A stretch of DNA of 64,000 bases from an uncultured Gammaproteobacteria bacterium (lineage in GTDB: Bacteria; Patescibacteriota; Patescibacteriia; UBA9934). Both the position numbers and the translations under genes were made by a program. The notes below the pieces were generated by a model. The model made no database searches. It had not been told where the DNA came from and saw nothing but the letters and a program-made list of their open reading frames with translations. Position 1 is the first letter of the stretch. The number at the start of each line of letters is the position of its first letter. The DNA lies in contig CAZORP010000006.1 in NCBI GenBank assembly GCA_964582615.1, positions 3,426-67,425 on the forward strand. The letters are read 5' to 3'. This document shows positions 38,688 through 63,530 of this stretch, piece after piece.

Positions 38688-41642
38688 CTATTTGTGTTCG
38701 TTGACCGACTTTACCACGTGGTCGAACATCTTTTCGCCGAAGTACGCCTTTAGGTCTGGATTCTTGTCGAGTTTTTTGTAGAAGTCAAAGTGACGGTTTA
38801 GCATCTCAACTAGCTCTTGGCCGAGCACCTCGTCGAATTTGATCTTTGCCGTATCCCGCGCGTTGTTTTTAATCGACCCCTGCAACATTGCGTTATTTAC
38901 CAACCTCTCGCCCAGCTGATTCGTAATAACGACATCTTCGAGAGTGAACTCAGTGCCAAATCGATCGTTGATGTCCGTGATGATTTTCGACAGACGATCA
39001 TGTTCCTTCATCTCTTCGCCTCGCTTGCCGCTTTGCATCGGTTCCAACAATCCATGCTCGTCCTCCAGGTGGATCGCGTCCTGCCCACGGTGTACGAGCT
39101 TGTATGATTCCATGTCAACGCTATCCAGCACCGCTGTTGGCAACTCTTCTTTAATTCGCGGTAATTTTTTCAAGAGCAAGCGTGTGAAAGTGTAGAGTTT
39201 TTCCAGTTCAGAGCTTTCGTACGGAATAATCTGTGAAGCAAACGCATAACGGCGGACGAAATCGGTACACTTCTTGCGGAAATCTTCCTGCTCTTGCGGC
39301 AGGCAATCCTCGAATTGTTGCACTGTCGCATCAAGGATGGCGTTAATCGTCGCCGGAGGCGCGTTGCGAAATAGTTCGTGTACGAATCCGTCCACCTCAT
39401 GCTGTGTGAACAGCTTAAAGGAATAGAGATCGCGCTCGAGGTCATGGAGGATATTCGGGTCCGTGCCTTCGGAAAGAACGGTGGTCGTGTAGTATGGTTG
39501 GAACGATTCTTGGATGTCGGCAGCATCGTTTACGAAGTCGAGCACAAATACCTCGTCCTTGTCCGACGTGGTGCGATTCAATCGGCTAAGCGTCTGCACT
39601 GCGCTAACGCCACTCAGCTTTTTATCGACATACATCGAGGCGAGGAGGGGCTGATCGAAACCTGTCTGGAATTTTTCGGCGACAATTAGGAATTTGAACT
39701 CGTCCTGCTCGAACGTCTTCGCAGTGGTCGCCTCAGGAACGCCATTCATGCCTCCTTCGGTATATTCGGTCACTCCGTCCTTAACCGTGCCGGAAAACGC
39801 TACCAGAGCCTTATACGGGTAATTGTGTTCGCGTAGGTAGGCATCCATAGCTATCTTGTAACGCACGGCATGTAAACGTGACTTTGTCACAATCATGGCC
39901 TTGGCTTTGCCGTGAATTTCCTTCGCGATTCGCGCGCGGAAATGCTCGGTCATGATCTCAACCTTCTTTTGGATTGCGTGCTCGTGTTTTTCAACATAAC
40001 CAATCAAAAGACGTTGAGCTTTTTTCTTGTCGAATTCCGGATCGTCCTCAACTTTCTTCAACAACGAAAAATACGCCTGATACGTTGTATAGTTTTTGAG
40101 TACGTCCAAGATAAATCGCTCCTCAATGGCTTGTTTCATCGAGTACAGGCTGAACGGATAATACTTTCCATCAACTGGACTCTTTGTTCCGAACAACTCA
40201 AGCGTTTTTTGTTTTGGAGTCGCGGTAAACGCAAAAAAGCTGATGTTATCCGTTTTCACCTTTCGGCTCCGGAGTTTTTTCAAGATCATCTCTTCTGTCG
40301 TCTCAGGCTCTTCTGAATCCTGTTGTGCCGCCGCGTCGAGACTAGAGGTCGTTAATGCTTCACGGAGATTCGCGGCTCCTTCACCGGTTTGTGATGAATG
40401 TGCCTCGTCAATAATCACCGCAAAGTTTTTTCCAGGAAGATTGCCGATTGAGTCGACGATAAACGGGAATTTTTGAAGAGTCGTGATGACGATCTTTTCT
40501 CCGGTTTCCAACGCATCCTTTAACTCCTGTGAACCTTCAGTAATCGCTTTCACGACTCCCGCGCGTTGCTCGAACTGCGTGACCGTATCGCGTAACTGAC
40601 GGTCGAGCACACGACGATCCGTAATAACAAGAACGGTATCAAAAACCTTTTTGTCATCATGGTTGTACAGTTCTGAAAGACGATGCGCAGTCCAACCAAT
40701 CGTATTACTCTTGCCGCTTCCCGCACTGTGTTGGATGAGATAGTTGCGACCAGCGCCATTCTCACGTGCATCTACGAGCAAACGCTGAACGGTGTCACGC
40801 TGATGATAGCGTGGAAAAATCAACACTTCCTTGACCGTCTCCTTTCCTTTCTCATCCGTGCTCTTAAGTTTTTGCAGCGTGATGAATTTCCCAACGAGCT
40901 CGAGGATGCTCTTCTTGGTCCAGACATCCTCCCACAGGTACGAGGTCTTATAGCCTCGGTCATTCGGAGGGTTGCCCGCGCCGCTGTTATAGCCCTTGTT
41001 GAACGGCAAGAAGTAGGTTTTGAGTCCAGCAAGCTTCGTCGTCATGTAGACCTGGTCGGCGTCCACAGCGAAGTGTGCCAGACATCGCTTGAAAGCCAAA
41101 AGAGGCTCTTTGTGATCTCGATCCGTCCGGTATTGTTGGATCGCGTTTTTCACCGTCTGTCCGCTCAATTGATTTTTTAGCTCAACGGTAAAAATCGGAA
41201 GACCGTTGAGGAAGATAACGGTATCAATGGACAGATCCGGGTTCTTTTCGCTGAAGTGCACCTGACGCATGACGCTCAAGACATTCGCCTCATAAAGCCG
41301 TCGCGTCTCTTCGTTGATGGCGGAATTTGGCGGGAAATATGCCATCTTGAAATTCACACCATGATCAGTGAATCCATTTCGAAGAACATCAAGCACACCC
41401 CGATTCTTCACCTCATCCGCAAGCCGACCAAATAAATGTTCGTTGAATTCTTCTCCATGAATTTCTAAGAGTTTACCAACCGATTCAGGTTGCGTTGCGT
41501 CGAGGAACTCCAAAACCATTTCAGGATCCACACAAAGACTCTTGAGATAAAGCTGGTTCGACTGCTTGCGATATCCGTTGACCTCGACGAGCTGTTGCTC
41601 GATATATTCTTCGAAGCCGATTTCTTTAGTATTAGTTGGCAT
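38688..41642 (-). CDS. hsdR: Type I restriction enzyme R subunit
   Basis: 984 aa. SF2 helicase motifs (HSAGSGKSNT motif I, VIIDEAHSSQTGE DEAH box). N-terminal nuclease region. Last gene of the hsd operon. Confidence 0.95.
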   Translation of the reverse strand: MPTNTKEIGFEEYIEQQLVEVNGYRKQSNQLYLKSLCVDPEMVLEFLDATQPESVGKLLEIHGEEFNEHLFGRLADEVKNRGVLDVLRNGFTDHGVNFKMAYFPPNSAINEETRRLYEANVLSVMRQVHFSEKNPDLSIDTVIFLNGLPIFTVELKNQLSGQTVKNAIQQYRTDRDHKEPLLAFKRCLAHFAVDADQVYMTTKLAGLKTYFLPFNKGYNSGAGNPPNDRGYKTSYLWEDVWTKKSILELVGKFITLQKLKSTDEKGKETVKEVLIFPRYHQRDTVQRLLVDARENGAGRNYLIQHSAGSGKSNTIGWTAHRLSELYNHDDKKVFDTVLVITDRRVLDRQLRDTVTQFEQRAGVVKAITEGSQELKDALETGEKIVITTLQKFPFIVDSIGNLPGKNFAVIIDEAHSSQTGEGAANLREALTTSSLDAAAQQDSEEPETTEEMILKKLRSRKVKTDNISFFAFTATPKQKTLELFGTKSPVDGKYYPFSLYSMKQAIEERFILDVLKNYTTYQAYFSLLKKVEDDPEFDKKKAQRLLIGYVEKHEHAIQKKVEIMTEHFRARIAKEIHGKAKAMIVTKSRLHAVRYKIAMDAYLREHNYPYKALVAFSGTVKDGVTEYTEGGMNGVPEATTAKTFEQDEFKFLIVAEKFQTGFDQPLLASMYVDKKLSGVSAVQTLSRLNRTTSDKDEVFVLDFVNDAADIQESFQPYYTTTVLSEGTDPNILHDLERDLYSFKLFTQHEVDGFVHELFRNAPPATINAILDATVQQFEDCLPQEQEDFRKKCTDFVRRYAFASQIIPYESSELEKLYTFTRLLLKKLPRIKEELPTAVLDSVDMESYKLVHRGQDAIHLEDEHGLLEPMQSGKRGEEMKEHDRLSKIITDINDRFGTEFTLEDVVITNQLGERLVNNAMLQGSIKNNARDTAKIKFDEVLGQELVEMLNRHFDFYKKLDKNPDLKAYFGEKMFDHVVKSVNEHK

Positions 41643-43002
41643 ATATTTTTCTTAATGTAGCAATTCTTTTCTGTATCGAAGATGAACTTTTATTAACTTC
41701 CTTCATGAAAGCCATAACTTCGTAATGAAATCCGTTATGGATTAGACGTTCGGATAATCGATCTAGCGATGATACGAAGTCGTCTTTTTCCTTATCGTGT
41801 AATCGCTCATGAATTGCCGAAAACTGATATGCTCTAGCTTCTTTAAGAAAATCATCATCAAGATACCAGGAAAAAAGTTTAACCCTTTGAGGATAGGTGA
41901 CCTTTTCCCAATTACAGGTTAAGGCACGATTCAGTAGGGGTAAACCGCGAGCTTTAATTTTCTCCCGCTGATCGCTGACGATTATCTTTGTCACCTCAGC
42001 GATAAAAAGGTTTGATTTGTCTGGATCTTTGTTTGATCCAGGCTGAAGCAAAATATCAAATAGTTTGTATGACCGGTATTCGATCATCTCATCGACAGTT
42101 CTGATAACCACCTTCTTTTGATTGATGGCTAAACCCAAAGCAAGCAGTTTTCTGGAAGCGCAGTAAATGACATGTTCAATTTGATCACGTTTTTTTACAA
42201 TGATTGCCTGGTCATCGGCGTATCGGAAATATTTTGCGCCAATTTCGTCGCAAATTTTCTTGATGTAAATATCGTATTCTTGGAGATAAAAGTTAGCCAA
42301 AATTCGCGAGCAGTCAGACATGGCATCTTGTGGCAACCCTACCGTTTGAGGATTGTAATGATTGATCGACTTGTTCCAGAAATTTAGGAAATGAAAAAGA
42401 AGTGAAAGTTCGTCACGATATTTTCCATCAAAAACTTCTCCTATTTTGCGTTTTAAAATGTCTAAATTAATAGAATCATAAAAATTGGCGATATCTAACT
42501 CAACCACGTATCCCTCGCTAGATTCCTTCAGTGAAACGTAAAGTTTCGCGTTGAAATCCTTGTATGCGATATACCACGCCGTTGGCGAAAACGACCACGA
42601 TGGCATTGATACTGTTGGATCGTAGAGATTTTCAATCTTTTTTTGTATTTCTGCTTCTTCTGCGTCTCTGTAGTTTAGACCACTGATGCTCCAGCCGCCG
42701 AAAGTATTTTCGGTTCTATTTCGAGCAAGTTTATGCTCGAGTCGAATAACGCAATAGTAATAAACGATGTAGTCCCTAATGGTAAAAACAGGAGAGATAC
42801 GAGCAACGCCAGATCCTTTATTGTGAGCAATGTAAAATTCTGGCTTTACTGGATGATATGTTTTGCTTTTAATTGCCGTATAAACCGACTTCAAAAGTTC
42901 CTCTTTTTCTTGGTAGGAAGAGGGGGTATTGAGAGGTAAATTCTGGAATGCTTTCCAGAATTTACGACCAAAAATCTTTTTGAATGATTTATAACTAATC
43001 AT
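41632..43002 (-). CDS. Reverse transcriptase (Abi/UG-like stand-alone RT) embedded between hsdS and hsdR
   Basis: RT motifs: motif 2 region YIAHNKGSGVARISPVFTIRDYIV, motif A LDIANFYDSINLDIL, motif B' GLPQDAMSDCSRILANFYL, motif C FRYADDQAII (YADD), motif D LAINQKKVVIR. About 150 aa of C-terminal extension with no known domain. It overlaps the hsdR start by 11 nt and abuts the hsdS stop. Confidence 0.8.
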   Translation of the reverse strand: MISYKSFKKIFGRKFWKAFQNLPLNTPSSYQEKEELLKSVYTAIKSKTYHPVKPEFYIAHNKGSGVARISPVFTIRDYIVYYYCVIRLEHKLARNRTENTFGGWSISGLNYRDAEEAEIQKKIENLYDPTVSMPSWSFSPTAWYIAYKDFNAKLYVSLKESSEGYVVELDIANFYDSINLDILKRKIGEVFDGKYRDELSLLFHFLNFWNKSINHYNPQTVGLPQDAMSDCSRILANFYLQEYDIYIKKICDEIGAKYFRYADDQAIIVKKRDQIEHVIYCASRKLLALGLAINQKKVVIRTVDEMIEYRSYKLFDILLQPGSNKDPDKSNLFIAEVTKIIVSDQREKIKARGLPLLNRALTCNWEKVTYPQRVKLFSWYLDDDFLKEARAYQFSAIHERLHDKEKDDFVSSLDRLSERLIHNGFHYEVMAFMKEVNKSSSSIQKRIATLRKIYAN

Positions 43003-43015
43003 GTATACGTCAGAC

Positions 43016-44233
43016 CTATCCAAGAACAGTCATCACATTTAGTGACTGACTATATTCCGTGAGGAGATTAATCGATTTATCAATGGAGCCGATCACTGAG
43101 TTAAACAATTTTGTTTTTTCGTTTAAGTAATCAACGATTCTTTTTTGTTCGTTAATTTGAGGTAGAATGATCTTTAGGTTTTCAATCACTCCCATGCCAA
43201 TATTTTGTTGTGTCCCGTAAGACCAAGATAACTTAACCTGATCTTGAAATAATTTTGTTTGTAGAAAGAAATAAAGATATTCAGGCAAAACAACGTCCCT
43301 ATTTGCTCTGATTAGGGCAAGCGGTGACCAGATACTAAATTCCTCGTCAGTTTCAACTAGACCAATTCTTCCGGTTGTTGCGCCAGATTTCACCATAAAA
43401 ATATCACCCCGTTGTGGCTTACATTTTTTGCAGAATTCCTCATGATCTTCACGGCTAATGAATCCACGCTTTTCAGCAAAATCGATCGTGTTGTTTCCTT
43501 GAATTGATTGGGCTGAAAGGAATGGGATACCAGAATCAAGTATTTCCGGTGTCGAGTGTGGTCCGTCAGTAATTTTTGTTTTAACAACTTGTTTCAATGA
43601 ACGAATAAAGAAATCTTTTGGGATTTTTTCGATCCATGCAGTATTACTATTGATAAGTTCGACATCATTATTTAAGCCTCGCGTGATTGCTTGATGAATT
43701 ATGAATGCCCTTTGCTCATTTAGTTTTTGAATGAGCCTTTTTTTGTCTTCTATCAATCGTGTGATGATAGTCGAATTTGAATCAAGTTTTTGTACTACTT
43801 TTTCTTGATCGGCTAATGCCGGTAGTTCAATTTTCTGATTACCAATAAAAGTCCAATTTGCGCGAGGCATTTTAGAACCGTAGGTTGAGTTGTTGACCGC
43901 CTTAATGAAGTCATCAGCTCTCAGTCTGTACGCAAGAAATGCTGGATTAACCTTTTCTTTTTTTGAATTGAGGACCAGAAGTTCGCCCGTACAAACCCCC
44001 TCACTTTTAGCCAATACAACCTTCGCGAGATACGGACGAAGCTTTCCGAATAGAACATCGTCTTTTTGGTAATAACTAGTAACACCATCGGAAACGATTG
44101 GGGTTTCCGATTCAATGATCTTGCCCGTGCCGCTTTCAATATTTTCCAGCCCAAGATACGGCAATCCGTCTTCGGACTGACCTCGAGCTCCACGGAGCGG
44201 GGCAATGTATTTGATCTTGATAGATTCGCTCAT
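43016..44233 (-). CDS. hsdS: Type I restriction-modification S (specificity) subunit
   Basis: Two target-recognition domains separated and followed by conserved coiled-coil repeats (LPALADQEKVVQKLD...; LPQINEQKRIVDYLNE...). AT-rich. Start ATG is 1 nt after the hsdM stop. Confidence 0.9.
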   Translation of the reverse strand: MSESIKIKYIAPLRGARGQSEDGLPYLGLENIESGTGKIIESETPIVSDGVTSYYQKDDVLFGKLRPYLAKVVLAKSEGVCTGELLVLNSKKEKVNPAFLAYRLRADDFIKAVNNSTYGSKMPRANWTFIGNQKIELPALADQEKVVQKLDSNSTIITRLIEDKKRLIQKLNEQRAFIIHQAITRGLNNDVELINSNTAWIEKIPKDFFIRSLKQVVKTKITDGPHSTPEILDSGIPFLSAQSIQGNNTIDFAEKRGFISREDHEEFCKKCKPQRGDIFMVKSGATTGRIGLVETDEEFSIWSPLALIRANRDVVLPEYLYFFLQTKLFQDQVKLSWSYGTQQNIGMGVIENLKIILPQINEQKRIVDYLNEKTKLFNSVIGSIDKSINLLTEYSQSLNVMTVLG

Positions 44234-44234
44234 A

Positions 44235-46247
44235 TTACAAACTTCCCATGAGCGTTGAAATTTCTCGCTCAAGCGTTTCTATTTCTTGTTTGATAGTCTC
44301 AATTGGACGTGGCGCTTCGTACTTATAGAAGAAACGCGTCACTGGGATTTCATAACCAACTCGACCTAGCTTTCCATCCTTGTGATCCGTGTAGGATTCA
44401 TCAATCCACGCATCTGCAACATACGGCCTCACTTCACGATCAAAGTACACTCGAACATCTTCGTTCAGTGGCACGTTTTCGCTATCTCGTAGGGTGCTAT
44501 CGGGTTCGATGTTCCCATCGGCAAGAGTGCAGACATCGGCATTTTCATCGCGTTCACCGAGCATTGATAAGATGAATTTCAGAACGGGTTTCTTAAGTTC
44601 AACACCTTGTTCGTCGCATCGCTTCTTGATCGCCTCGACAAACTTTTCTTGGTTCAAATACACCTCGTCACCGAAATTCTCGATAAGTTGGAGAAGCTTT
44701 TGTTTTTCCGGATCGGGCAAGCGATCCTTGGTCATGAAGATTTTCCAGAACACCTCATGCCCCTTGAGGCGTTGGATGCGCTCGGCTGAGGCCTGGAAGT
44801 TCATGCGCAATGGACGTTCAACGACGATTTGTCGATATCCGAAATCGCTATTCTTGAAGATCTTGGAGTATTCATTTTCGGTAAAATCCTTGTAGAGCTC
44901 AAGAACTTTCGATCGATGCGCTTCGGTGATTTCGTTGCGCTTGTTGCCTAAGCTCTTTCGCATCTTCTCAAGGAAGCCACGGGCATCAATGATTTGAACG
45001 AGACCCTTGCGCTTCTCTTCTTTTCGATTCGTCACGAACCAGAGGTATGTAGGAATGCCTGTGTTGAAGAAGAGTTGATCCGGAAGCGCGACAACCGCTT
45101 CGAGCCAGTCGTGCTCCAAAATCCAGCGACGGATTTCGCTTTCACCTTGACCAGCATCACCCGTGAAGAGCGGCGAACCGTTGAAGACAATGCCGATGCG
45201 CGAGCCTCCTTCACTTTCTGGTCGCATCTTTGAAATAAGGTGCTGGAGGAAGAGGAACTGACCGTCGGATGAGCGTGGAAGCCCCGCGCCAAAACGTCCG
45301 GCGTATCCTCGCTCAGCTTCGCGTTCGACGGCGTCCATGTCTTTCTTCCAGTCCACGCCGAATGGTGGGTTGGTCAGCATGTAGTCAAATTGCGTGCCGA
45401 AGAACTGATCGTTCGAAAGTGTGCTTGCGAGCGAGTGATCCTTTTCGCCACCCTTGATGTTGTCCGGATTTTCACCCTTGATCAGCATGTCGGATTTACA
45501 CATGGCGTAGGTGACCGGATTCAGTTCCTGACCATAAAGATACACGCCAGCATCCTTGTTCACGTCGTTACGGATGTACTCCTTGGCGATAGAAAGCATT
45601 CCACCTGTTCCGCATGCGCAGTCGTAGACGGTCTTGATGATGTGTTCCTTTTTCAGCTTCTCGCGGTCCGGGGCGAAGAGAATTTCGACCATGAGCTTAA
45701 TCACGTCGCGTGGAGTGTAGTGTTCTCCAGCCGTCTCATTGGATTGTTCGGAGAACTTGCGGATGAGTTCTTCAAAGATTGATCCCATCTCGTGATTGTC
45801 GACAACATCGGGATGCAAGTCGACCTTGTTCAATTCCTTGATGATGAGATAGAGCAGGTTGCCGCCCTCGAGCCTCGACAACTGGCGATCGAATTCGAAC
45901 TTTTCAACGATGTCCTCGATATTCGCGCTGAAGCCGCGAAGATAGTGTTTGAAGTTGGCGGCAATGTGGTCTGGATCTTCGAGAAGCTTTTCAAAGTCGT
46001 ATTCGGATACGTTGTAAAAGCCGACTTTCGAAGCGGCTTTTAAGACGGGGTCGATATCAATCTTCGCTTTCAGCTCATTGTATTGTTGGAGTACCTTTGA
46101 CTTTGTGGGTGCGAGAAGAGAATCAAGGCGTTTTACTACGACGAGAGGCAAAATGACATCCTGATATTCGTGTTGCTTCCAACTTCCACGAAGTATCTCG
46201 GCGATGTTCCAGATGAGCTGTGCCTTCTCTCGAAAATTGTTGGTCAT
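44235..46247 (-). CDS. hsdM: Type I restriction-modification M (N6-adenine methyltransferase) subunit
   Basis: DCACGTGGML (motif I, AdoMet binding) and NPPFGVDWKKD (motif IV). HsdM N-terminal domain present. Confidence 0.95.
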   Translation of the reverse strand: MTNNFREKAQLIWNIAEILRGSWKQHEYQDVILPLVVVKRLDSLLAPTKSKVLQQYNELKAKIDIDPVLKAASKVGFYNVSEYDFEKLLEDPDHIAANFKHYLRGFSANIEDIVEKFEFDRQLSRLEGGNLLYLIIKELNKVDLHPDVVDNHEMGSIFEELIRKFSEQSNETAGEHYTPRDVIKLMVEILFAPDREKLKKEHIIKTVYDCACGTGGMLSIAKEYIRNDVNKDAGVYLYGQELNPVTYAMCKSDMLIKGENPDNIKGGEKDHSLASTLSNDQFFGTQFDYMLTNPPFGVDWKKDMDAVEREAERGYAGRFGAGLPRSSDGQFLFLQHLISKMRPESEGGSRIGIVFNGSPLFTGDAGQGESEIRRWILEHDWLEAVVALPDQLFFNTGIPTYLWFVTNRKEEKRKGLVQIIDARGFLEKMRKSLGNKRNEITEAHRSKVLELYKDFTENEYSKIFKNSDFGYRQIVVERPLRMNFQASAERIQRLKGHEVFWKIFMTKDRLPDPEKQKLLQLIENFGDEVYLNQEKFVEAIKKRCDEQGVELKKPVLKFILSMLGERDENADVCTLADGNIEPDSTLRDSENVPLNEDVRVYFDREVRPYVADAWIDESYTDHKDGKLGRVGYEIPVTRFFYKYEAPRPIETIKQEIETLEREISTLMGSL

Positions 46248-54614: not shown

Positions 54615-54923
54615 TTGTCTGTGGATAAGTTATGTCACACGAAGTTGGAGTGCATACCGTTCTGGGAATGGAACGAAACGATGAAACCTGATACTGTTTC
54701 GTTAAATGTCCTTGATTTTGAAGCCTTTATGAATTCCGGTGAAGAGACACTTGTCAGCCTGATTGACACACATCTTTCCAGCGAACAGCGGACGCTCATG
54801 TCGTCAATTGATCTCGAAGCTGAAGTCGCGGATATTCTCGAAACCTTGAAAACGGAAGGGCTCGTTTCGTTTGGCGAACAAGTTGATGATTCCTATGCAC
54901 ATCAAGAAACTCAAGAAGAGTAA
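54615..54923 (+). CDS. Small strongly acidic protein, translationally coupled to the downstream ATPase
   Basis: 102 aa from a TTG start, or 80 aa from the internal ATG (MKPDTVSLNV...), very D/E-rich. It overlaps the first codons of the AAA_13 gene. An AT-rich promoter-like region lies upstream. Confidence 0.4.
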   Translation: MSVDKLCHTKLECIPFWEWNETMKPDTVSLNVLDFEAFMNSGEETLVSLIDTHLSSEQRTLMSSIDLEAEVADILETLKTEGLVSFGEQVDDSYAHQETQEE

Positions 54924-57267
54924 CAACGTATTCTCGTACGGCTCTTTTGAGTGGGATGCTATTAATCCTCAAAAACTACTCAATAACGATGGAAAACTGG
55001 TTGACAGTAAAAACGAATTTGAAAAATGCAACGTTCTCTTCGGAGAGAACGGGAACGGAAAATCAAAGTTGGTAAAAATTTTCCGTGCGCTGCACGATCC
55101 GCATCGGTCGTTGGAAAAGCATCGTGATTTGCAGGGACAGCCTCAGGAGATCGAAATTTTGTTTGACGACGACACGGTGACAACCAATGCTGGGAATGGG
55201 TGGTCGGACAGAAGAGCAGAAGGTAAATTTGTCATATTCGACAAGCATTACGTCGATGCGTTCGTGCATTCGCCGGGAACGCATGACGGAGACACTCCGC
55301 AACGAAAACAACAGCGAGGGAAAAACATCGTCTACCTTGGTAATTTCGGTAAATACAATGAAGAAATCGACAAACTTAACGACCTCAAAAACAAAATCAG
55401 GGATGAAAATGAGCGCGCCCTAAAAGCCCAGCATCAAATCATCAGTGGCATCATCACGCCCCATGGTTACACCATGGAACTCATTGGCCAAAGCCGGGCC
55501 GCCATCGAAACGGCCGATGTCGCGGGATTGGTTGAACTAAAGGATGCAAAGTTGAAAGTTGTAGAAGAGGTGACAAAAATACAGACCGCGATTTCCCAAT
55601 CCCAAAAAGTCAGCAATCTCGAGGCGCTCGCACTCCAATCGAGAAGCATTTTTTCTTTGACGGAAGAAGTCGGCGGAGTTGTTGCCGTCGTCAAAACGAC
55701 CGACCTGTTTGCGTTCACGGTCTCGGCAGGTATTCAAAAGACGATTCAGAAAATTGCAGGTAAAAAAGAATTCATTCACCAAGGCGTAGGATTGCTGACC
55801 AAGGACGCGGATACATGTCCATTTTGCGAACAATCAATCAGCGACTCTACGCATAAGCAAATCATCGACGACTACCAATCGATTTTCACGGAAACCTTCG
55901 AGCAGGAACAAATGCGAATTCGTCGCTTACTATCTTCGTACAAATCGCAACTTATAGCGCTGAGAGACCTGCAAATCACGAGCTCTGAAGCGTCGAAAAT
56001 CACAGCAGCATCTCCTTTCTTTTCCGATTTACCTGCATTGCCAAATCTTGCGCCTCCGGAAGAGGATCGCGAGATTCTTGAGGCGGAAATTTCCCTTGTC
56101 GAACAGAAGCTTAGCCAACTTCTTGAGAAGATCGACCCTCCCAACCAGGAACGTATTCGCGTAATTGCAGAAGCGACAGAACAGAGAATCGTCGAATATA
56201 ACCGCATCGCCGGAGAGGTAAATACAAAGATTGACGAATTGAAGAAAAATGCTCTCTCTGGCAAATTGAACGATCAGCTTGAATTATTAAAAAAGCGCCA
56301 TGTCGAATTAGACCAAAATATTTTTTTCATCGAGAACCAAAAGCCATTGCTTCGGTACTTTGCTTCCATCGACGACGACAAAAAGAACAAGAAAGTGGTA
56401 GCGGACCTCGAGGAGGTTTACCAAAACATGAAGGTGGCAATCGTGGACAAATTTACGTCCTTCGTCACGGATTACTTCTCGCTCATCGAGGATATCTTGG
56501 GACGCATCAGCCCAGGAATGGGAATCTTCGACATCACTGGCCAAGCTACTTATACCCGAGTCGGAAAAGAGCCGGCGCAATGTGGATTTCGAATTACGTA
56601 CAACGGTAATGAGTGTTCTGAGGGGTTGAGTGATGGCGAGAGACAGGCGGTCGCGCTTGCATATTTCTTTGCTCAGCTGGAAAAGCTCGCCGACAAGGAT
56701 AGGATCATCATCTTTGATGACCCCATCACGAATTTCGACACCGGAAAGCGGAAGGCGACGGCTGAGCTGATTTACAAAAAGTCCCTGGAATTCGCACAAA
56801 CGTTTGTGTTCACATGCGATCCGCTGTTCAGGGAATTCTGCCTCAAGGCAGGCACGGTGAAGGCGTATTCGATATACCATACTGGTGGCTCATCGGCTGT
56901 TTATTTTGTACCGAAGCATATCGCGCGAATCCAAGACGCATTCGAGGAGAGTATGCGCGGAATGGATTCTCTAACTGGAACGCCGGAGAATGTCGTTATA
57001 TTTGGTCAGAAGCTTCGTTTTTGTCTGGAAACGAAGATCAAGGAAGATTACTTCGGGTACTCAAAGGACAGCCTCCGTAATATGTTGGAAACTGTCTCCG
57101 CTCAAGGCGGACAGAAATTCCAAGATCTCATTTCAAACATGGATGAGATCGTGGAGATTTACAATTACTGCAACACTGGAGGGCTCGCGCATTATCCCAG
57201 GGATGGTTCTACAAGCTGGACTGAACTCAAAGGAATGGTTGCCAGATATTTTGCACTTGGCCTTTAA
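54871..57267 (+). CDS. AAA_13/ABC-type ATPase with a coiled-coil insert and CxxC zinc-hook motif (RloC/PrrC-like anticodon-nuclease architecture)
   Basis: Walker A GENGNGKSK near the N-terminus. A roughly 500-aa coiled-coil insert with DTCPFCEQ in the middle. ABC signature LSDGERQAVALAYFFAQ, Walker B IIIFDDP and D-loop near the C-terminus, followed by a 170-aa C-terminal domain. Confidence 0.65.
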   Translation: MANKLMIPMHIKKLKKSNNVFSYGSFEWDAINPQKLLNNDGKLVDSKNEFEKCNVLFGENGNGKSKLVKIFRALHDPHRSLEKHRDLQGQPQEIEILFDDDTVTTNAGNGWSDRRAEGKFVIFDKHYVDAFVHSPGTHDGDTPQRKQQRGKNIVYLGNFGKYNEEIDKLNDLKNKIRDENERALKAQHQIISGIITPHGYTMELIGQSRAAIETADVAGLVELKDAKLKVVEEVTKIQTAISQSQKVSNLEALALQSRSIFSLTEEVGGVVAVVKTTDLFAFTVSAGIQKTIQKIAGKKEFIHQGVGLLTKDADTCPFCEQSISDSTHKQIIDDYQSIFTETFEQEQMRIRRLLSSYKSQLIALRDLQITSSEASKITAASPFFSDLPALPNLAPPEEDREILEAEISLVEQKLSQLLEKIDPPNQERIRVIAEATEQRIVEYNRIAGEVNTKIDELKKNALSGKLNDQLELLKKRHVELDQNIFFIENQKPLLRYFASIDDDKKNKKVVADLEEVYQNMKVAIVDKFTSFVTDYFSLIEDILGRISPGMGIFDITGQATYTRVGKEPAQCGFRITYNGNECSEGLSDGERQAVALAYFFAQLEKLADKDRIIIFDDPITNFDTGKRKATAELIYKKSLEFAQTFVFTCDPLFREFCLKAGTVKAYSIYHTGGSSAVYFVPKHIARIQDAFEESMRGMDSLTGTPENVVIFGQKLRFCLETKIKEDYFGYSKDSLRNMLETVSAQGGQKFQDLISNMDEIVEIYNYCNTGGLAHYPRDGSTSWTELKGMVARYFALGL

Positions 57268-57270
57268 TGA

Positions 57271-57780
57271 TCAGGAGGCGAGGTTTGGATTCTCTTCCTT
57301 CAAAAACACGAAATACCAGAAGTGCTTGCCGTTGCGAATTTCACGGGCTTTGAGTTCTCCGATGCGCACTTTCTTTGCCACAGTCGAATGATGCCAGCCG
57401 AACTTTTTCTTAAAATCGTCTGACGAATACCAGCTCTTACGGTCGGTCGCAACGGTACCCGGAATCACGCCATCTTCGACCGCCTTTTGGCACGGGCGAC
57501 ACTTGATGCCGAACCTGTCGAACCAGCCCTCGCCGCCTTCTAAGTGTTGGTAGCAAACGATACAGTTGTATGTACCATTTGAAGGAACGGCGAAGCCATT
57601 AGGTTCCGCAACGAGCCGCTCTTTCCATCGTTCGATCCTCGTGTGGACGTTCAGCAGAGCGCGGTAGAAACCGAGCAGATTTTCTGAGTATTCCAGTGCC
57701 TGGGCGTCGGTCAGGTCCTGGTCGTACTCCTTCTTCCAAAGCTCCTTAAACGACTGAATCCGTTCGTCATTTGTGCGCAT
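57271..57780 (-). CDS. Zn-ribbon + HTH_17 (excisionase/MerR-like) DNA-binding protein
   Basis: CxxC...CxxC (NCIVCYQ...KCRPCQK) then C-terminal WYSSDDFKKKFGWHHSTVAKKVRIGELKAREIRNGKHFWYF, which fits the HTH_17 pattern. Probable start MRTNDERIQ, internal to the 242-aa ORF. A truncated paralog lies at 61798..62058. Confidence 0.5.
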   Translation of the reverse strand: MRTNDERIQSFKELWKKEYDQDLTDAQALEYSENLLGFYRALLNVHTRIERWKERLVAEPNGFAVPSNGTYNCIVCYQHLEGGEGWFDRFGIKCRPCQKAVEDGVIPGTVATDRKSWYSSDDFKKKFGWHHSTVAKKVRIGELKAREIRNGKHFWYFVFLKEENPNLAS

Positions 57781-57847
57781 AGGATTATTGTGAAAAGCCC
57801 TTGAAACCATCGTATTCCTGATTTGAGACACAAGCCATTCTCGTGTC

Positions 57848-58148
57848 TCATTTGTCTCATTTCGATGAGACCCGGGTGCCAGTTTGACCCCTCCAAAAGA
57901 CCCCTTAAACATTGTCGAAAGGTGAGTTCGAGACCCGTACGCCGAGCCAAGTGGAAACGGCTGGAGCAATCTGGTCGTTTTTACTTTTGTATCAGTCATT
58001 ATTAAGTGGTTCTAACCTTGCGGAATCGTTCTCAAGAGCCTTTTGCGATTCGAAGATAGGAACGAGCCAAGGATTGGGGTTAATGCTGAGCTTTCCGTTC
58101 AAAAGTGTCGGGTTCGAACTTGAAACAGTTCGAATTTTGTTTTATGCT
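57848..58148. repeat. Copy A of a conserved structured non-coding element upstream of the Zn-ribbon regulator (with a 130-bp insertion relative to copy B)
   Basis: Shares about 85% identity over roughly 110 nt with 62119..62259. Hairpin GTCTCAtttcgATGAGAC. Two GAGACCCG(G/T)(G/A)(T/C)GCC direct repeats and repeated GACCCCT motifs. A terminal hairpin GGTTCGAACttgaaacaGTTCGAAtt followed by ttttgtttta on the plus strand. Confidence 0.6.
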
Positions 58149-58157
58149 AGGAATTAT

Positions 58158-59360
58158 ATGCGTTCTGAAAAACAAAATAATTCACTCATCAAAACAGTAA
58201 TTACCATCCTCGCAGCTTCGGTTATTCAAATATCAGCAGGCTGGTTTTTGTTGAGTAATATTGTTTTTGCCGATTCGCACCCCAATCTCATTGAATCGAT
58301 TTTGTACTTTTTGCTCGTACTCACTTCTTACGCAGCAACTCTTGCGGTTTACATCAAGACAGCACGTGCGAAGCAGGCGGTACTGCTTGGAATACTTGGT
58401 TACTTCGCTTCAGCGGTAATACTTACACTCGCACCATTAATCAATGGTTTTTATGTAACAGGCGTTGGTGGCGTCGGGCTGGTCAGCCTATCGGTAATGA
58501 CCGTTCACCTAATAATTTTACTTTTCACACTCAAGTTACTGAAAATAAATAGAGAGGTGGGTAGGACTAAAATAGAGTTAAAGAATTTTGCAATTGCTTT
58601 TCTCTGTGTCGCCGTATCGTTATTTTTCATAGGCTTCTTCAAAACACTTGCATGGAATACTGAACCGAATTCATATTTGGCACTAGGCTATCTAGATCTA
58701 AAAGATCTAGCTGCGAGTATTAGGGAGTCGCTCTTTATGGGTCTGCTGAGTGTCATATTAGATCTCCGAATTCTAGGTATCTTAACGGCATACTCGGTAC
58801 TGATTTACATCTTATTGGGACGGGTAGGAAAACATCTGAATTTCAGCAAAAAGATTTTAGTTATATTTGTACCAATCTGGATCGTCATCGCTCTATTTGT
58901 AGCAATGAGTGGTCAAACATTGAAACAGGGTCTACATGACAATTTCAGTAATTTTCAACCAACTTGGGATAATCAAAGTTTGATCACTAATCATAAAGTT
59001 GAACTCAGCGGAGTTTCATTTACCGTTTGGTGCGATACCACTCTAGACGTAAGCGACCAAAGTATAGAATGTAAAAATCGCTATACGGTTTTACCTACGG
59101 ATCGTTTAAGGACACCACGAGACACGTATTCGAAACAGATCAACGTAGGTTTGTTTGAAAAAGTGGCGATTCAGTCAAATACCACAACAGAATGTGTTTA
59201 CACCGAAAACGATATACAGATTGATAATGCGTTTTTCACATTGAAAACGGAATGGTGTGATTCTAGAAACTTCCCAGTCATGGCAGGGATCGAATGGGAG
59301 GAGTTCATCTTGCCGTTAATGGAGTGTTTCGGTTTTGATAAGTGCGAAACGACTCAGTGA
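58158..59360 (+). CDS. Polytopic membrane protein with a C-terminal Cys-containing soluble domain; last gene of the island
   Basis: Start at MRSEKQNN (internal ATG of the 482-aa ORF). About 8 TM helices, then a 140-aa hydrophilic tail with 5 Cys. Confidence 0.45.
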   Translation: MRSEKQNNSLIKTVITILAASVIQISAGWFLLSNIVFADSHPNLIESILYFLLVLTSYAATLAVYIKTARAKQAVLLGILGYFASAVILTLAPLINGFYVTGVGGVGLVSLSVMTVHLIILLFTLKLLKINREVGRTKIELKNFAIAFLCVAVSLFFIGFFKTLAWNTEPNSYLALGYLDLKDLAASIRESLFMGLLSVILDLRILGILTAYSVLIYILLGRVGKHLNFSKKILVIFVPIWIVIALFVAMSGQTLKQGLHDNFSNFQPTWDNQSLITNHKVELSGVSFTVWCDTTLDVSDQSIECKNRYTVLPTDRLRTPRDTYSKQINVGLFEKVAIQSNTTTECVYTENDIQIDNAFFTLKTEWCDSRNFPVMAGIEWEEFILPLMECFGFDKCETTQ

Positions 59361-59442
59361 AGAATGCGGGCGATCTATGCAAACTGCGCCAATTCAGTCT
59401 CCAGTCCCGCCCAGTTTGTGGTTCTGAACGCGTCCAGAGTGC

Positions 59443-59489
59443 GGAGCCATGAGAAGGCGTGTGAGGTGACCCACATGTCTTGTCAAAAA
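59443..59489 (+). repeat. attR: right copy of the 47-bp direct repeat
   Basis: ggagccatgagaaggcgtgtgaggtgacccacatgtcttgtcaaaaa, 46/47 identical to 35599..35645. The downstream hairpin stem is partly co-varied (accaccat...atggcggt versus agtcgtc...ggcgact). Confidence 0.75.
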
Positions 59490-59677
59490 GTCGTCATTGA
59501 AAAAGGCGACTATCCCTTCTGGTATAGTTGCCAACATCTATACTCGAATTGTGGCATGTGCATTGCTACTCATGTTTATAACCCCTATACTCTTTATGTG
59601 GTTTATTGCGTACTACATGTCTGGCACGGACATAGCGACATGGACGGTCCTTATAGGACATAACGAGTAGCGCCTCT

Positions 59678-60427
59678 ATGAAGAAAAAATCAGTCATCAT
59701 CGGACTCCTAATTGTTCTCCTAGACATTGTTTTTATTTCTATTCTCATTATTTGGCAGACTGGTCTTCTACTGAACAAACTTGATTGGACCGCTCAGCTG
59801 GCCATCTGGGCACACAGCCCTGAAAAGTGCGAGGCACTAGCGCCTACCGAAAGTGTCCCGGCAGGTCCGAATGATGCCAAGGGTACGCCGTATACCGTCT
59901 ATCCTCGCGACGTTTGCTTGTCCTATTACCTTCATGCGACAGCGGATGCAACCACCTGCGACAAAATGACTGAGCAGAAGCATCGTAACCTTTGTTTTGA
60001 TTATCTAGCCGAAGTCTTTACTGATCCGCTTTGGTGCGACAGCGCATGGTCAACAAGTGAGTTGCTTAATATCCAATGTAAAGCTCGAGTGACAGGCGAT
60101 ATCACCCTGTGTGACGGAATAGACGGCTTGGGTTCTGTAGATGAGTATCTGACCCAAAAGGCCATGTGTATTAGTGCGGTGGCTTATACCAATAGAGATT
60201 ACACTCAGTGCTTAACTATTACCGCAACGCCCGAACGAACGGATACAACCCGAAACGCATGTTTATTAGACGCTGTGTGTGATAAGCCAGAATTGCGAGA
60301 GGTTGTTTGTGAACTCATAGACTATACAGATGAGTCCTGGCATAAAAGCAAGGACAAGTGTTTAGAAGAAACCGGATTTTGTTCCGATCTCTGGAATTCA
60401 CGATATGCCGTTCCATTTAAGAGGTAG
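59678..60427 (+). CDS. Membrane-anchored Cys-rich extracytoplasmic protein
   Basis: N-terminal TM anchor (VIIGLLIVLLDIVFISILIIW) followed by a 210-aa domain with about 18 Cys in CxxxC/CD patterns. Confidence 0.45.
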   Translation: MKKKSVIIGLLIVLLDIVFISILIIWQTGLLLNKLDWTAQLAIWAHSPEKCEALAPTESVPAGPNDAKGTPYTVYPRDVCLSYYLHATADATTCDKMTEQKHRNLCFDYLAEVFTDPLWCDSAWSTSELLNIQCKARVTGDITLCDGIDGLGSVDEYLTQKAMCISAVAYTNRDYTQCLTITATPERTDTTRNACLLDAVCDKPELREVVCELIDYTDESWHKSKDKCLEETGFCSDLWNSRYAVPFKR

Positions 60428-60480
60428 CTGCAAGTCAATCTGATTTTCGAGGGAAGCTGAAGCAGATCTATGATCAAGCG

Positions 60481-60723
60481 TTGAAGAAGCAAAAAGAAAT
60501 GATGGTCGGTGCATCACAGATCGCGCTCGACGCTAAAACCGAAGAATTTCAACAAAGCTATTTTGCCATGTACCGCTTCGCTAACTATGGATCGCATGAA
60601 TTCACATCTACTGAATCGTTCGATATCTCGATATTGGCGGATGCCGATAGAAGAATTAACAATTTCTTTGACGTACTGAAGCTCGTCGATTTAGATCACT
60701 ATAAACACGTGACCAATCTTTAA
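60481..60723 (+). CDS. Small hypothetical protein
   Basis: 80-aa ORF; weak. Confidence 0.25.
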   Translation: MKKQKEMMVGASQIALDAKTEEFQQSYFAMYRFANYGSHEFTSTESFDISILADADRRINNFFDVLKLVDLDHYKHVTNL

Positions 60724-60770
60724 AGGCTTGTAATTTTTTATGTGGTTTCTGAACTGGTAGACTGCAAAAT

Positions 60771-61607
60771 ATGAAAACATATCGAAAGTATTACTCAATT
60801 AGAGCTGGAAAGAAAAATGCAGAAATGGATTTTAACGCCCTCCGTAAAATCTTTTTTAGCGTGTATCAGGAATTCTCAAATAGAGCATATTTTGATGAAT
60901 ATCTTGATGATTATTGCCCTGACTCATCCGGTGTAAATGGAAAAGTCGTGGACGTTTCCGCTTTCTTACTTCGTAAGTTACGGAAAGATAATCTGTGGCC
61001 GATACACCAACACTGGGAAGAATATTCGGAGGAAGATATTTTTGATCTTATAGAATTTTTATTTGATCACGTTTCCGCACCTATCGATGAGAATCCTACG
61101 CGTCACCCATTTTATAACCACTACCATTATGGGCATTTTGATCAAGAACGAGGTAAAGAAGAGTATAGAGACGCTATAAACGAGATGCTCAATGACTATG
61201 GTGCAGGATACGAATTAGGAGGTAACGGAGAAATTTACGCGCTCTTACAGGAAGAGTTTCGTCCACTGCTTGGAGCAAGTATTCCCACTACTGATACTGA
61301 TAATATAGAAAGCAAGATTTCCAAAGCGGTTAATAAATTTAGAAGATATGGCTCAACGCTTGATGAGCGTCACGAGGCGGTGCGGACGCTCGCCGATTGT
61401 TTAGAGTATCTTCGTGAAGACTTGAAGAAAGTCATCACACAAAAAGATGATGGAGATTTATTCCAAATAGCTAACAACTTCGGTATACGCCACCACAATG
61501 ATGTACAGAAGACCAATTATGACAGAACTATTTGGCTGAGTTGGATGTTTTACTTTTATCTCGCGACCCTACATGCAGGATTAAGACTTCTTGCGAGAAA
61601 AAAGTAA
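60771..61607 (+). CDS. Hypothetical protein (278 aa)
   Basis: No motif recognised. AT-rich accessory context. Confidence 0.35.
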   Translation: MKTYRKYYSIRAGKKNAEMDFNALRKIFFSVYQEFSNRAYFDEYLDDYCPDSSGVNGKVVDVSAFLLRKLRKDNLWPIHQHWEEYSEEDIFDLIEFLFDHVSAPIDENPTRHPFYNHYHYGHFDQERGKEEYRDAINEMLNDYGAGYELGGNGEIYALLQEEFRPLLGASIPTTDTDNIESKISKAVNKFRRYGSTLDERHEAVRTLADCLEYLREDLKKVITQKDDGDLFQIANNFGIRHHNDVQKTNYDRTIWLSWMFYFYLATLHAGLRLLARKK

Positions 61608-61797
61608 AGGATTCTCCTCATTCAGAAATACATAGAAGTACGGTTTGCTGTCGGCGTTTCTAACAATTTTCGCTTTCAACTCTCCACTTCGCGCCTTCGC
61701 TTGAACTGTGGTGTGGTGCTAGCCGTATTTTGACGTGAGCTGGCTTACCGAGAGCCACGTTTTATCGTCCAAGACCGCTGGCCCCGGGACGACACCT

Positions 61798-62058
61798 TCA
61801 TCGACTGCCTTTTGAGAGTGGGCACTTGAGACCGTACTGGTCGTACCAGGTCTCGTTATCTCTCATGGATCGACGGCAGAGGTTACAGTCGTAAATTCCG
61901 TAGGTTATCGGAAAGCCATTGGGTTCAGTTTTGAGACGCTCTTCCCACCCTTCAAGTCGCATCTGAATGCTCAGGAGTAGCTCGTCGAATTTCACAAATT
62001 GCCCGATTTCATCATCCGTAAACGTTTGGTTTTGTTCGTATCCTGTTCGTGTTTTCAT
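61798..62058 (-). CDS. Truncated paralog of the Zn-ribbon regulator (Zn-ribbon only, no HTH)
   Basis: ERLKTEPNGFPITYGIYDCNLCRRSM...TWYDQYGLKCPLS aligns with ERLVAEPNGFAVPSNGTYNCIVCYQ...GWFDRFGIKCRPCQ of 57271..57780. It ends just after the second Cys pair. Confidence 0.45.
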   Translation of the reverse strand: MKTRTGYEQNQTFTDDEIGQFVKFDELLLSIQMRLEGWEERLKTEPNGFPITYGIYDCNLCRRSMRDNETWYDQYGLKCPLSKGSR

Positions 62059-62118
62059 ATTTGTTAAAGCCCCTTTATTTTCGCTATTTTCGTTTGGGGT
62101 GACCCTCTGACGTATCGT

Positions 62119-62259
62119 CCCATTTGTCTCACTTTGATGAGACCCGGGTGCCTGTTTTGCCCCATCGAAAGACCCCTCAAACGTTGTCGAAAGATGAGTT
62201 CGAGACCCGTACGCCGAGCCAATGAGACTCGAACTGGAAACGGTTCGAGTCTTGTTTTA
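62119..62259. repeat. Copy B of the conserved structured non-coding element
   Basis: Same position (about 57 nt upstream of the Zn-ribbon paralog start) and same motifs as copy A. Terminal hairpin GACTCGAACtggaaacgGTTCGAGTC followed by ttgtttta on the plus strand. Confidence 0.6.
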
Positions 62260-62287
62260 GACTAGAGAAGAGATAAGTTCTGAACTT

Positions 62288-63373
62288 GTGAAATCACGAG
62301 AAAATTTAAATGATCAAGAATATAGCGAAATAGAGGGTGATTTTAATATTTTCAAAAAATACGAAGGCGCCGATCAATTGCTCCGTGACTTACAAGCGCA
62401 GATAGGCTCAAATTGTGCGAAAGTTCGTCAGATTAGAAAGGGTAGTAACAATGGCTTGTTTGTTTTGACCTTAGATGACGGCCGTAAAATGGTCGCAAAG
62501 TTTTACCAACGTGATCACCGAACTCGATTACTGAGAGAATATTCTGCAAACACATTCTTATCTAAGCAAGACTTCTCAGTAGCGACTCCTATTATTAAAA
62601 ATCAGAAAAAAAACTATGGCGTATATTCCTACGAAGAAGGAGAATCGTTAAATGCCGCTGATGCTTTATCGAGAGACGTTGATCATCTCGCTGTTTTTTT
62701 GGTTCGCCTGCAGCAATTTCGACCATCGGAGGTGCCAAAGAGTTTCGATCGAGCTGTTGCAGTCATGGTCAATGTGCAAGAGGTACTTGATGACAATGAC
62801 CGTCGTATTTCAGCGCTTCAGCAAGCAGCCGCTGATGGAACGGCGCACCCATTGATCAGAGAGTTGCTTGATGTAGATTCACTTACCGACTCTATTCACG
62901 ATCTTACGCAGAGAATCTTGGCAGGATCTGCCGATACTTCTTGGCATGTCGCGCCTGATGATATGCGTCTCAGTCCAGTCGATTTTGGATTCCATAATGC
63001 CTTATTCCGAGGCGATACCCCTCCCGTGATTCTTGATTTGGAATACTTTGGCTGGGACGATCCGCTGCATCCCGTTGCAGATTTCATAGCTCACGATCAG
63101 ACCCTTGGCTTATCACCCCTATTGCGACAGCGATTCATTGACCGTTATGCCTATGGCGTGAATCTGCCCGACCATGAAAGAACTAGGCTTGATGAATTGA
63201 TTGCGCTGACAGAAGTAAAATGGATGGCTATTTACCTACTATCATTAACGCCAAAGTACATACAGAAACGATCCTTCGCTGCGGGCGGAAAGTTTGATGA
63301 AGAAAAGTACATTCGTGAACAGGTGAAAAAGATTGAGACCCGCAAATCCACCATCACGAATCAGACAACATAA
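62288..63373 (+). CDS. APH/choline-kinase-like phosphotransferase family protein
   Basis: Gly-rich loop and Lys (IRKGSNNGLFVLTLDDGRKMVAKFY), catalytic-loop-like VDFGFHNALF and ILDLEYFGWDDP (Brenner/DFG-like). GTG start. Confidence 0.55.
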   Translation: MKSRENLNDQEYSEIEGDFNIFKKYEGADQLLRDLQAQIGSNCAKVRQIRKGSNNGLFVLTLDDGRKMVAKFYQRDHRTRLLREYSANTFLSKQDFSVATPIIKNQKKNYGVYSYEEGESLNAADALSRDVDHLAVFLVRLQQFRPSEVPKSFDRAVAVMVNVQEVLDDNDRRISALQQAAADGTAHPLIRELLDVDSLTDSIHDLTQRILAGSADTSWHVAPDDMRLSPVDFGFHNALFRGDTPPVILDLEYFGWDDPLHPVADFIAHDQTLGLSPLLRQRFIDRYAYGVNLPDHERTRLDELIALTEVKWMAIYLLSLTPKYIQKRSFAAGGKFDEEKYIREQVKKIETRKSTITNQTT

Positions 63374-63402
63374 GCATCTGGCGGTTCAACCTTGTCCCAT
63401 CT

Positions 63403-63449
63403 CGTAGTTCTGAACCCGTTCAGCAATCGGAGCCAACAATTCCTCAGCA
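63403..63449 (+). repeat. Third, degenerate copy of the sequence flanking attR (att remnant)
   Basis: gttctgaacccgttcagcaatcggagcca versus gttctgaacgcgtccagagtgcggagcca at 59421..59449: 23 of 29 identical with conserved spacing. Similarity stops at ggagcca. Confidence 0.4.
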
Positions 63450-63530
63450 AAGATGCTGGGGTTTTGTTATTTAAGGCCGGCAAATCCATCAGGATTTTTT
63501 GGGTGATTTTTGATATAGTACTCGCGAACT

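Follow-up and report, generated by a model that had tools for sequence, protein, structure and literature searches.

Large serine recombinases are valued genome-engineering tools, and the directionality factors that belong to them are hard to find. One such system is phiRv1 of Mycobacterium tuberculosis, the targets of which, by the account of Bibb and Hatfull from 2002, are reportedly a multi-copy genomic repeat family (REP13E12). In phiRv1 the partner of the large serine recombinase is a small basic protein of limited similarity to the excisionases (Xis) of tyrosine integrases, and the sites are small and simple (PMC1470463). A second point of reference is BldC of Streptomyces, a MerR/Xis-like protein that binds 9-bp direct repeats of the form AATTXXXX(C) head to tail (PMC5859096). 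Here we analyze a 64-kb stretch of DNA (64,000 nucleotides of contig CAZORP010000006.1, from an assembly labelled uncultured Gammaproteobacteria; hereinafter the window), in which an element of ~105 nt occurs twice, each copy lying upstream of a gene, or the remnant of a gene, for a protein with a zinc ribbon and a predicted winged helix. An earlier annotation made from the letters of the window (hereinafter the original prediction) had presented it as a structured non-coding element and had offered three options for its nature: an autoregulatory operator and leader, a discrete small RNA of the plus strand, or a small mobile or recombination module. We favor, with slightly better than even confidence, the view that the element is not a structured RNA and that it unites the core and the element-side arm of an attachment site (attP, which integration would turn into attR) with an operator, in mobile elements whose large serine recombinases target the 3′ end of tRNA-Asn.

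Like phiRv1, the proposed system pairs a large serine recombinase with a small, putatively Xis-like factor. Unlike phiRv1, it would target the 3′ end of tRNA-Asn, which is also what the element mimics; the core contains the end of the recombinase gene, a zinc ribbon and long helices are additional features of the putative factor, and at a distance of ~90 bp from the core there are conserved 9-bp repeats. As in the P arm of lambda-type attP sites with its tandem Xis sites, tandem direct repeats for a predicted winged-helix protein stand beside a core that copies a tRNA 3′ end. In contrast to the lambda type, no tyrosine recombinase was found in the island described below or among the neighbors scanned, including the commonest neighbor families; the recombinases are of the large serine type, which has no known need for arm sites. 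The locus further resembles genomic islands that target tRNA genes, in that islands and cassettes lacking an integrase follow one another, each set off by a direct repeat of the tRNA end.

The cores of the two copies, both on the plus strand, lie at 57845–57950 (copy A) and 62117–62222 (copy B) and are identical at 94 of 106 ungapped positions (88.7%), and a 26-mer (GAGTTCGAGACCCGTACGCCGAGCCA) is exact in both where the chance expectation is 0. Each is situated ~57–65 nt upstream of a minus-strand paralog, which bears out the duplication described in the original prediction. Equally sound was its claim that the element is better conserved than the genes, since the spacer between core and gene start is 50% identical between the copies, and the coding sequence at 57271–57780 and its counterpart at 61609–62058 are ~54% identical in a global alignment. 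The second paralog had been described as truncated; its open reading frame (ORF) is indeed short (86 codons, 61798–62058), but its real state is that of a pseudogene (61609–62058, minus strand), in which homology runs on to ~61609 through a frameshifted remainder that has lost 2 nt and acquired an in-frame stop. This pseudogene B is a paralog of gene A of the type found in a related locus, L006 (related loci are designated here by L numbers), with which pseudogene and element together share 75% nucleotide identity across 618 nt. A profile of the element family run over the window matched copies A and B only (copy B, nhmmer E=3.5e-16). The related GACCCCT(CC) motifs formerly noted at 35925 and ~54400 are accordingly near chance, GACCCCT occurring eight times on the plus strand of the window.

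Most conspicuous in the element is a 20-mer (GTCYCATTTGTCTCAYTTYG; 57845–57864 in copy A), which is invariant and recurs exactly in at least 120 metagenome contigs. Three viral contigs also match it, and the matching genomes include one Candidatus Uhrbacteria assembly and assemblies labelled uncultured Gammaproteobacteria. The element belongs to a large undescribed family of modules in uncultured bacteria; BLAST searches with it against phage and plasmid collections gave nothing meaningful, and a full-text literature search with a 15-mer sequence recovered no paper. From 5′ to 3′, family members display an inverted copy of the repeat (ATGAGACA(C)), frequently a −10-like TATAGT, a pair of direct 9-bp repeats, 0–25 nt of spacer, box 1 (GACC-NNN...), an A-rich middle, box 2 (GGTTCnAGACC-NNN...), and an end reading ...G-CCA. 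The 20-mer amounts to two 9-bp repeats (TGTCTCATT, with a period of 9 bp; other loci have different repeat cores), and the whole can be divided into these repeats with their inverted copy, a body of ~75 bp, and a 3′ tail of ~29 nt resembling tRNA-Asn. In copy A the repeat or operator block occupies 57824–57864 of the plus strand (inverted TGAGACA at 57824–57830, direct TGTCTCATT from 57844 and from 57853), followed on the same strand by the body at 57865–57920, with box 1 (GATGAGACCCGGGTGCC) at 57864–57880 and the A-rich middle. Copy B (62117–62222, plus strand) has its repeats at 62117–62136, box 1 at 62136–62152, and the tRNA-like tail at 62196–62222. The arms of the inverted arrangement are retained with a different 11-nt spacer in L002, L003, and L005. 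Across the family, the three bases after GACC co-vary between box 1 and box 2 in the manner of a direct repeat, and the two boxes are spaced mainly 74–75 or 63–64 bp apart.

A profile extending from box 1 to the tail retrieved additional copies with different repeat cores in front of them (TGTAACA, TGTTCCG, TGTCAC, and TGTACCA). These other-core modules (e.g., L119, L020/L055, L013, L116, and L011/L125) show the same layout of one inverted and two direct repeats, and a contig may hold several flavors. The occurrence of different repeat cores before the same module suggests a family of binding proteins with diverged specificities. The genes neighboring the element are highly diverse across loci, and homologs of the gene A protein are found in only 12 of 130 element-bearing loci. 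Several homologs of this protein are annotated with N-terminal extensions that translate the element in differing frames, from which it follows that the element is conserved elsewhere and is non-coding; the reading of the element as a small ORF was dropped because the frames differ among loci and stop codons are present. Repeats of this kind were also seen in other settings. Four G+C-rich soil contigs (L018, L078, L094, and L111) have three tandem GTCTCA repeats (GTCTCACGC GTCTCATTT GTCTCATTT) with the rest of the element absent, indicating that the repeat motif reaches beyond the main family, and the viral contig L127 (~10200–10400, minus strand) and L129 have dense clusters of GTCCCATTTGTCTCAC-type repeats in two orientations, like origin or operator arrays. 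A long G+C-rich hairpin (CCCTTCGACGCG...CGCGGCGAAGGG) lies immediately 3′ of the element tail in L023 (150–235), and in L051, L076, and L109 the 20-mer is followed by TTCGAC/CTCAG-rich sequence similar to it.

The tail ties the element to a specific tRNA. The window encodes tRNA-Asn(GTT) at 35531–35605 on the plus strand (ARAGORN, Rfam), and the last 29 nt of the element match its T-arm, acceptor, and G-CCA end at 20 of 29 positions (manual count on the alignment). In copy A this mimic, with T-arm-like and acceptor-like segments and G-CCA, spans 57921–57950 (plus strand) and is the proposed recombination core. In 23 of 47 family members the distance from the 7-nt loop to the CCA is exactly 13 nt, just as it is in a tRNA. 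A pseudo-tRNA making up the whole element was ruled out, as the similarity to tRNA-Asn ends ~29 nt from the 3′ end. In closely related pairs similarity is lost directly after the discriminator-like G, and homology between loci stops just past ...GAGCCA(A). For example, L006 is collinear with 61609–62222 of the window and then with 63430–63472, which means that the window has a 1,207-bp insertion (62223–63429, plus strand) placed directly after GAGCCAA. This insertion comprises a hairpin homologous to 58109–58137, a kinase gene at 62288–63373 in which Pfam finds an APH domain, and a repeat-like motif with a tail site (63392–63436). Likewise, in L003 a gene of 117 codons is enclosed by two ...GGAGCCA sites with the same 3′ flank after each, and in L002 a kinase-like gene lies between the ...GGAGCCA of tRNA-Asn and a second ...GGAGCCA, so that occupancy is polymorphic with breakpoints at the site in all three comparisons. 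In L131, L141–L143, and L144 the downstream flank of tRNA-Asn comes after the element tail, and in L133/L134 the element body is fused to a genuine tRNA-Asn 3′ end that replaces the tail. The tail hence mimics the tRNA 3′ end in sequence and in spacing and is interchangeable with the target tRNA. The tail behaves as a recombination junction: comparison of the loci shows what appears to be strand exchange at or just past ...GAGCCA, by which either the tRNA-Asn flank or an incoming cassette becomes joined to the tail. Such an exchange, with the crossover dinucleotide falling somewhere in the shared GAGCCA(A), would explain both the sharp 3′ boundary of the element and the tandem accretion of islands and cassettes after tRNA-Asn. 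Among the three options offered originally, the small mobile or recombination module agrees best with the evidence, since the 3′ end of the element is the point to which insertion breakpoints, tRNA-Asn flanks, and the ends of recombinase genes all map.

The recombinase genes in question are of the large serine class. In L136–L138 an intact recombinase (Resolvase and Recombinase domains) is encoded opposite the element strand, with its stop codon in box 2 and its last six codons in the tail; after it, on the same strand, come the body, the repeats, and the Zn-ribbon/winged-helix gene. The intact recombinases of L009 and L121 likewise read into an element from the opposite strand and terminate within its tail, and the element is thus physically linked to large serine recombinase genes. 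The Zn-ribbon/winged-helix gene adjoins a recombinase gene in L136–L138 and also in L146, where the recombinase is 49% identical to that of the window. Recombinases of this class occur at 15–17 of the 130 loci, typically divergent from the repeats or convergent on the tail, and are among the commonest neighbor families, alongside ParB-methylases, S24 peptidases, and genes of cyclic-oligonucleotide-based antiphage signaling systems (CBASS). The window itself encodes one at the tRNA-proximal end of the island (36240–37562, minus strand; Resolvase, Recombinase, and Zn_ribbon_recom domains). Beside copy A, tblastn detected a C-terminal pseudogene remnant of another (57938–58138, minus strand, one in-frame stop), which over 67 aa shares 45% identity with the C-terminal portion of a fragmentary L002 recombinase; that fragment in turn shows weak similarity to the L121 recombinase (25% over 106 aa, E ~1e-4). 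The peptide motif WLR..D.FRT..W is also encoded at the junction sites near 59.4 and 63.4 kb. What had been taken for a 130-bp insertion and a terminal hairpin in copy A (58109–58143) lies within this remnant and, given the homology, is debris of a recombinase gene. The hairpin 3′ of copy B is a piece homologous to the 58109–58137 hairpin of copy A (67% identical), and copy A has a hairpin and T-run of its own immediately 3′ of the core (57951–57985).

The protein encoded by gene A (57271–57780, minus strand; 169 aa) is predicted to begin with a pair of long helices, to continue with a zinc ribbon of four cysteines, and to end in a winged helix of the BldC/Xis type. It has 23 detectable homologs in which the cysteines are conserved. 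No Pfam domain was found in the gene A and B proteins, and the HTH_17 domain earlier assigned to the former is not among its matches, the winged helix being visible by structure comparison alone. An AlphaFold model built with 22 sequences (pLDDT 89.9) displays the two long helices, the zinc ribbon, and the winged helix, the best domain matches being BldC-DNA complexes, a phage P2 DNA-binding protein, and the Xis of mycobacteriophage Pukovnik (TM-score 0.49–0.69, rmsd 2.6–2.9 Å). Of these, BldC comes closest to the C-terminal domain in structure (probability 0.94, TM-score 0.62–0.69 over 52 residues), and, like the sites of BldC, the ATTTGTCTC-type repeats of the window have a 9-bp period; unlike the 169-residue protein with its zinc ribbon, BldC is a single domain of 68 residues with no known link to recombination, and no relationship was detected at the level of sequence. 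We regard the modeled resemblance to BldC and Xis as a lead rather than a demonstration. By analogy, we propose that the gene A protein may bind the repeats as a regulator or as a directionality factor.

Several genes recur near this protein. A gene for an AAA_13 ATPase adjoins the 3′ end of the Zn-ribbon/winged-helix gene both in the window (54871–57267, plus strand) and in L131 (1939–3576), and CBASS genes (SAVED, Cap15) are found at nearby positions in other relatives (L132, L139). In L001–L004 a gene for a LexA/CI-like S24 peptidase lies ~3.3–3.7 kb from the element at a constant distance to the Zn-ribbon/winged-helix module, and in L131 the S24 peptidase is fused or adjacent to a DNA methylase. 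The S24 peptidase may be the repressor of these mobile elements.

Taken as a mechanism, the favored attachment-site reading would have the following form. The minus strand would ancestrally have read recombinase gene, with its last codons over the tRNA-like tail, then the ~75-bp body, the 9-bp repeats, and the Zn-ribbon/winged-helix gene. The site would act as attP and become attR after integration. The Zn-ribbon/winged-helix protein would bind the TGTCTCATT repeats head to tail, and thereby either repress its own promoter or serve in excision or directionality beside the core. On this view, the recombinase, the tRNA target, and the repeat-binding protein would all constrain the element and so keep it highly conserved, even as the genes around it are shuffled.

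A structured RNA was sought by several routes. At the gathering threshold the sole Rfam match in the window is tRNA-Asn (35531–35602), and relaxation to E≤10 gave, at the two copies, nothing above chance level (DLEU2_6 at 12 bits, SdsR at 13 bits). ARAGORN found no tRNA or tmRNA at either copy or at the elements of 60 related loci, and the T-stem is kept for two to three pairs at most across the family. RNAalifold predicted 0 pairs for 48 diverse members; for three subfamilies on either strand the consensus energy was never better than −7 kcal/mol, and for the 20-member regulator-linked subfamily it was −0.16 and −1.57 kcal/mol, with few predicted pairs that are essentially invariant. When helices were specified explicitly (the T-arm-like hairpin and AACCC/GGGTT), pair counts equaled those of shuffled controls with no covariation above them, a stem pairing box 1 with the tail fared no better in duplex energy than controls did, and mutual information reflected the direct-repeat covariation and subfamily effects and nothing else. 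The single-sequence folds of copies A and B do look alike, as is expected of sequences that are 89% identical. The 5′ hairpins described for the two copies exist (GTCTCAT-TTCG-ATGAGAC in A and GTCTCA-CTTTGA-TGAGAC in B), but a loop that changes while the stem is kept does not here amount to covariation, the pairs being invariant across relatives. With no Rfam match at either copy and neither consensus structure nor covariation in the 48- and 20-member alignments, both the headline of the original prediction, a structured non-coding element, and its option of a discrete plus-strand small RNA are left without support.

A small RNA gene in a looser sense still deserves consideration. Here the element would be a plus-strand gene whose 5′ end is conserved and whose 3′ end is tRNA-like. 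Mobile elements would integrate into this gene, as they do into tRNA and tmRNA genes, and would carry a copy that restores it. Such a gene would account for the TATAGT/TATACT −10-like box directly before the 20-mer in many copies, in some as an extended −10 (TGCTAAAAT), for an intrinsic terminator right after the tail in 18 of 52 copies on the plus strand versus 6 of 52 on the opposite strand, for the co-orientation of ~70% of neighbor genes with the element, and for conservation at 85–89% of the full 105 nt over diverged modules; copy B also has a fold z-score of −4.5. Against this, neither strand shows an Rfam family, consensus structure, or covariation, the copies in the window lack a recognizable sigma-70 promoter, and several of the terminators lie inside recombinase coding sequence or are part of the tRNA-Asn flank. 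Moreover, the repeat motif is also found inverted upstream and in dense two-orientation clusters elsewhere, which argues for recognition as double-stranded DNA. On balance we hold this explanation to be unlikely, if worth keeping in view. A portable promoter and leader, with a repressor at the 20-mer and variable expression platforms governing downstream plus-strand genes by termination or attenuation, we judge to be less likely again. Promoter-like hexamers within the element, same-strand ORFs that often begin 10–60 nt past the tail or past the terminator hairpin, and arrays with an element ahead of successive genes, such as that in L044, would suit it; yet the downstream genes lack functional coherence, neither a conserved aptamer-like structure nor alternative pairing with the sequence-unrelated terminators was found, and the mimicry of tRNA-Asn and the ends of recombinases within the tail would go unexplained. 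Least probable, and in our estimate very unlikely, is an element that is solely the autoregulatory operator and promoter of the Zn-ribbon/winged-helix gene and owes its conservation to recent duplication or gene conversion within one genome. The gene does start ~60 nt downstream of the repeats, the inverted arms persist around a spacer that varies, and the predicted fold suggests binding to direct repeats. However, the same variant of the element accompanies proteins that are just 42–79% identical in other genomes (L001, L006, L130, and L131), so its conservation does not stem from local duplication; only the 12 of 130 loci mentioned above encode a homolog, and the conserved 85 nt distal to the repeats would be left without explanation. 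The operator and leader option of the original prediction therefore survives as a plausible account of the 5′ 20 nt, where 9-bp repeats precede a gene for a predicted BldC/Xis-like winged-helix protein, and of that part only.

The favored view, that of an attachment site with arm, core, and operator, itself faces several points that weigh against it. For most family copies the few kb of sequence around them contain no recombinase, and such copies would need to be explained as relics or as integration targets. Sites of ~40–50 bp, with none of the arm type, are normally enough for large serine recombinases (PMC1470463), whose directionality factors work via protein contacts (PMC1470463, PMC12286644). 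This leaves the ~75-bp body and the co-varying boxes unaccounted for, and a system with a conserved body, such boxes, and a DNA-binding factor would be a variant of those known. The terminators present just after the tail in about one third of copies, the −10-like TATAGT before the 20-mer in many, and the orientation bias relative to neighbors fit a transcription unit as well. Uniform conservation at 85–89% over the whole 105 nt, between modules with proteins only 42% identical, exceeds what is expected of separate binding sites. There are two apparent crossover positions, one in the T-loop (L133/L134) and one after GAGCCA (other loci). Finally, the Foldseek E-values for the winged helix are weak (0.2–1.6), the support coming only from the probability and TM-score.

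In the window, the tRNA-Asn end and its flank (35598–35665) recur at 59442–59508 (62 of 68 positions identical), and these repeats bound an island of ~23.8 kb. The second flank copy has a tail-like site before it, and the resulting junction (GGTTCTGAAC...GGAGCCA at 59420–59449, with the flank extending the feature to 59508; plus strand) is the proposed right end (attR) of the island; its minus strand reads WLRTLDAFRTTNW, like a recombinase C-terminus. The island begins with the large serine recombinase and contains nucleases, terminase-like genes, DNA methylases, the AAA_13 ATPase, and type I restriction-modification, the last as a minus-strand operon (HsdR, HsdS, and HsdM; 38688–46247) with a reverse-transcriptase gene (41632–43023) between hsdR and hsdS. 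A cargo gene for a membrane protein (58149–59360, plus strand), an ORF without a Pfam family, lies past the tail of copy A and ahead of the junction site that comes next. A second block past the island ends at a tail-like site (63407–63435), and a RhuM-like region is found farther downstream. On the attachment-site reading, which is the most economical one, 35531–63475 shows tandem accretion at tRNA-Asn, with the island at 35.6–59.45 kb followed by a block to ~63.44 kb; both elements and the decayed recombination genes sit near the distal ends of the accreted blocks.

Some contigs have multiple co-oriented copies ahead of successive small accessory genes. In L044 (537–4827, minus strand) four co-oriented elements within 6.9 kb each precede a small accessory gene (encoding ASCH, a 113-aa ORF, or a methyltransferase), a layout that resembles a cassette array. 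As with the attC cassettes of integrons, we observe small, promoterless-looking cassettes for accessory enzymes, each ending in a site-like repeat, and a platform beside a divergent gene; unlike in integrons, the site by inspection has neither an imperfect-palindrome hairpin nor R′/R′′ cores, and there is no IntI tyrosine recombinase. Identity with integron attI/attC sites was rejected, as box 2 (GTTCGAG/GTTCTAG) by inspection misfits the GTTRRRY core, no hairpin is conserved, and no tyrosine recombinase was seen among the scanned neighbors. An integron-like array of tail-only sites also has little support, since such sites are rare in the 884 kb of loci (eight extra on the element strand versus three on the opposite one).

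A further proposal, which we advance only tentatively and think doubtful as it stands, is that these modules represent a large serine recombinase family, apparently of the candidate phyla radiation, with a composite attachment site in which a mimic of a tRNA 3′ end over the recombinase stop codon is joined to a 9-bp-repeat arm for a Zn-ribbon/Xis-like factor. If this were so, the composite site would give a serine integrase a DNA-binding, arm-dependent form of directionality control and, at tRNA-like sites, would cause single-gene cassettes with promoters to accumulate in an integron-like manner. Should the attachment-site reading favored above be correct, a very widespread exact 20-nt motif of groundwater and sediment metagenomes would be explained as part of the integration modules of mobile elements, and a false lead would be removed, in that the element should not be catalogued as a structured RNA. 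The loci would also supply candidate triplets of recombinase, site, and accessory factor for large serine recombinases, and would reveal a route by which defense genes and small accessory genes pile up after tRNA-Asn in reduced genomes.

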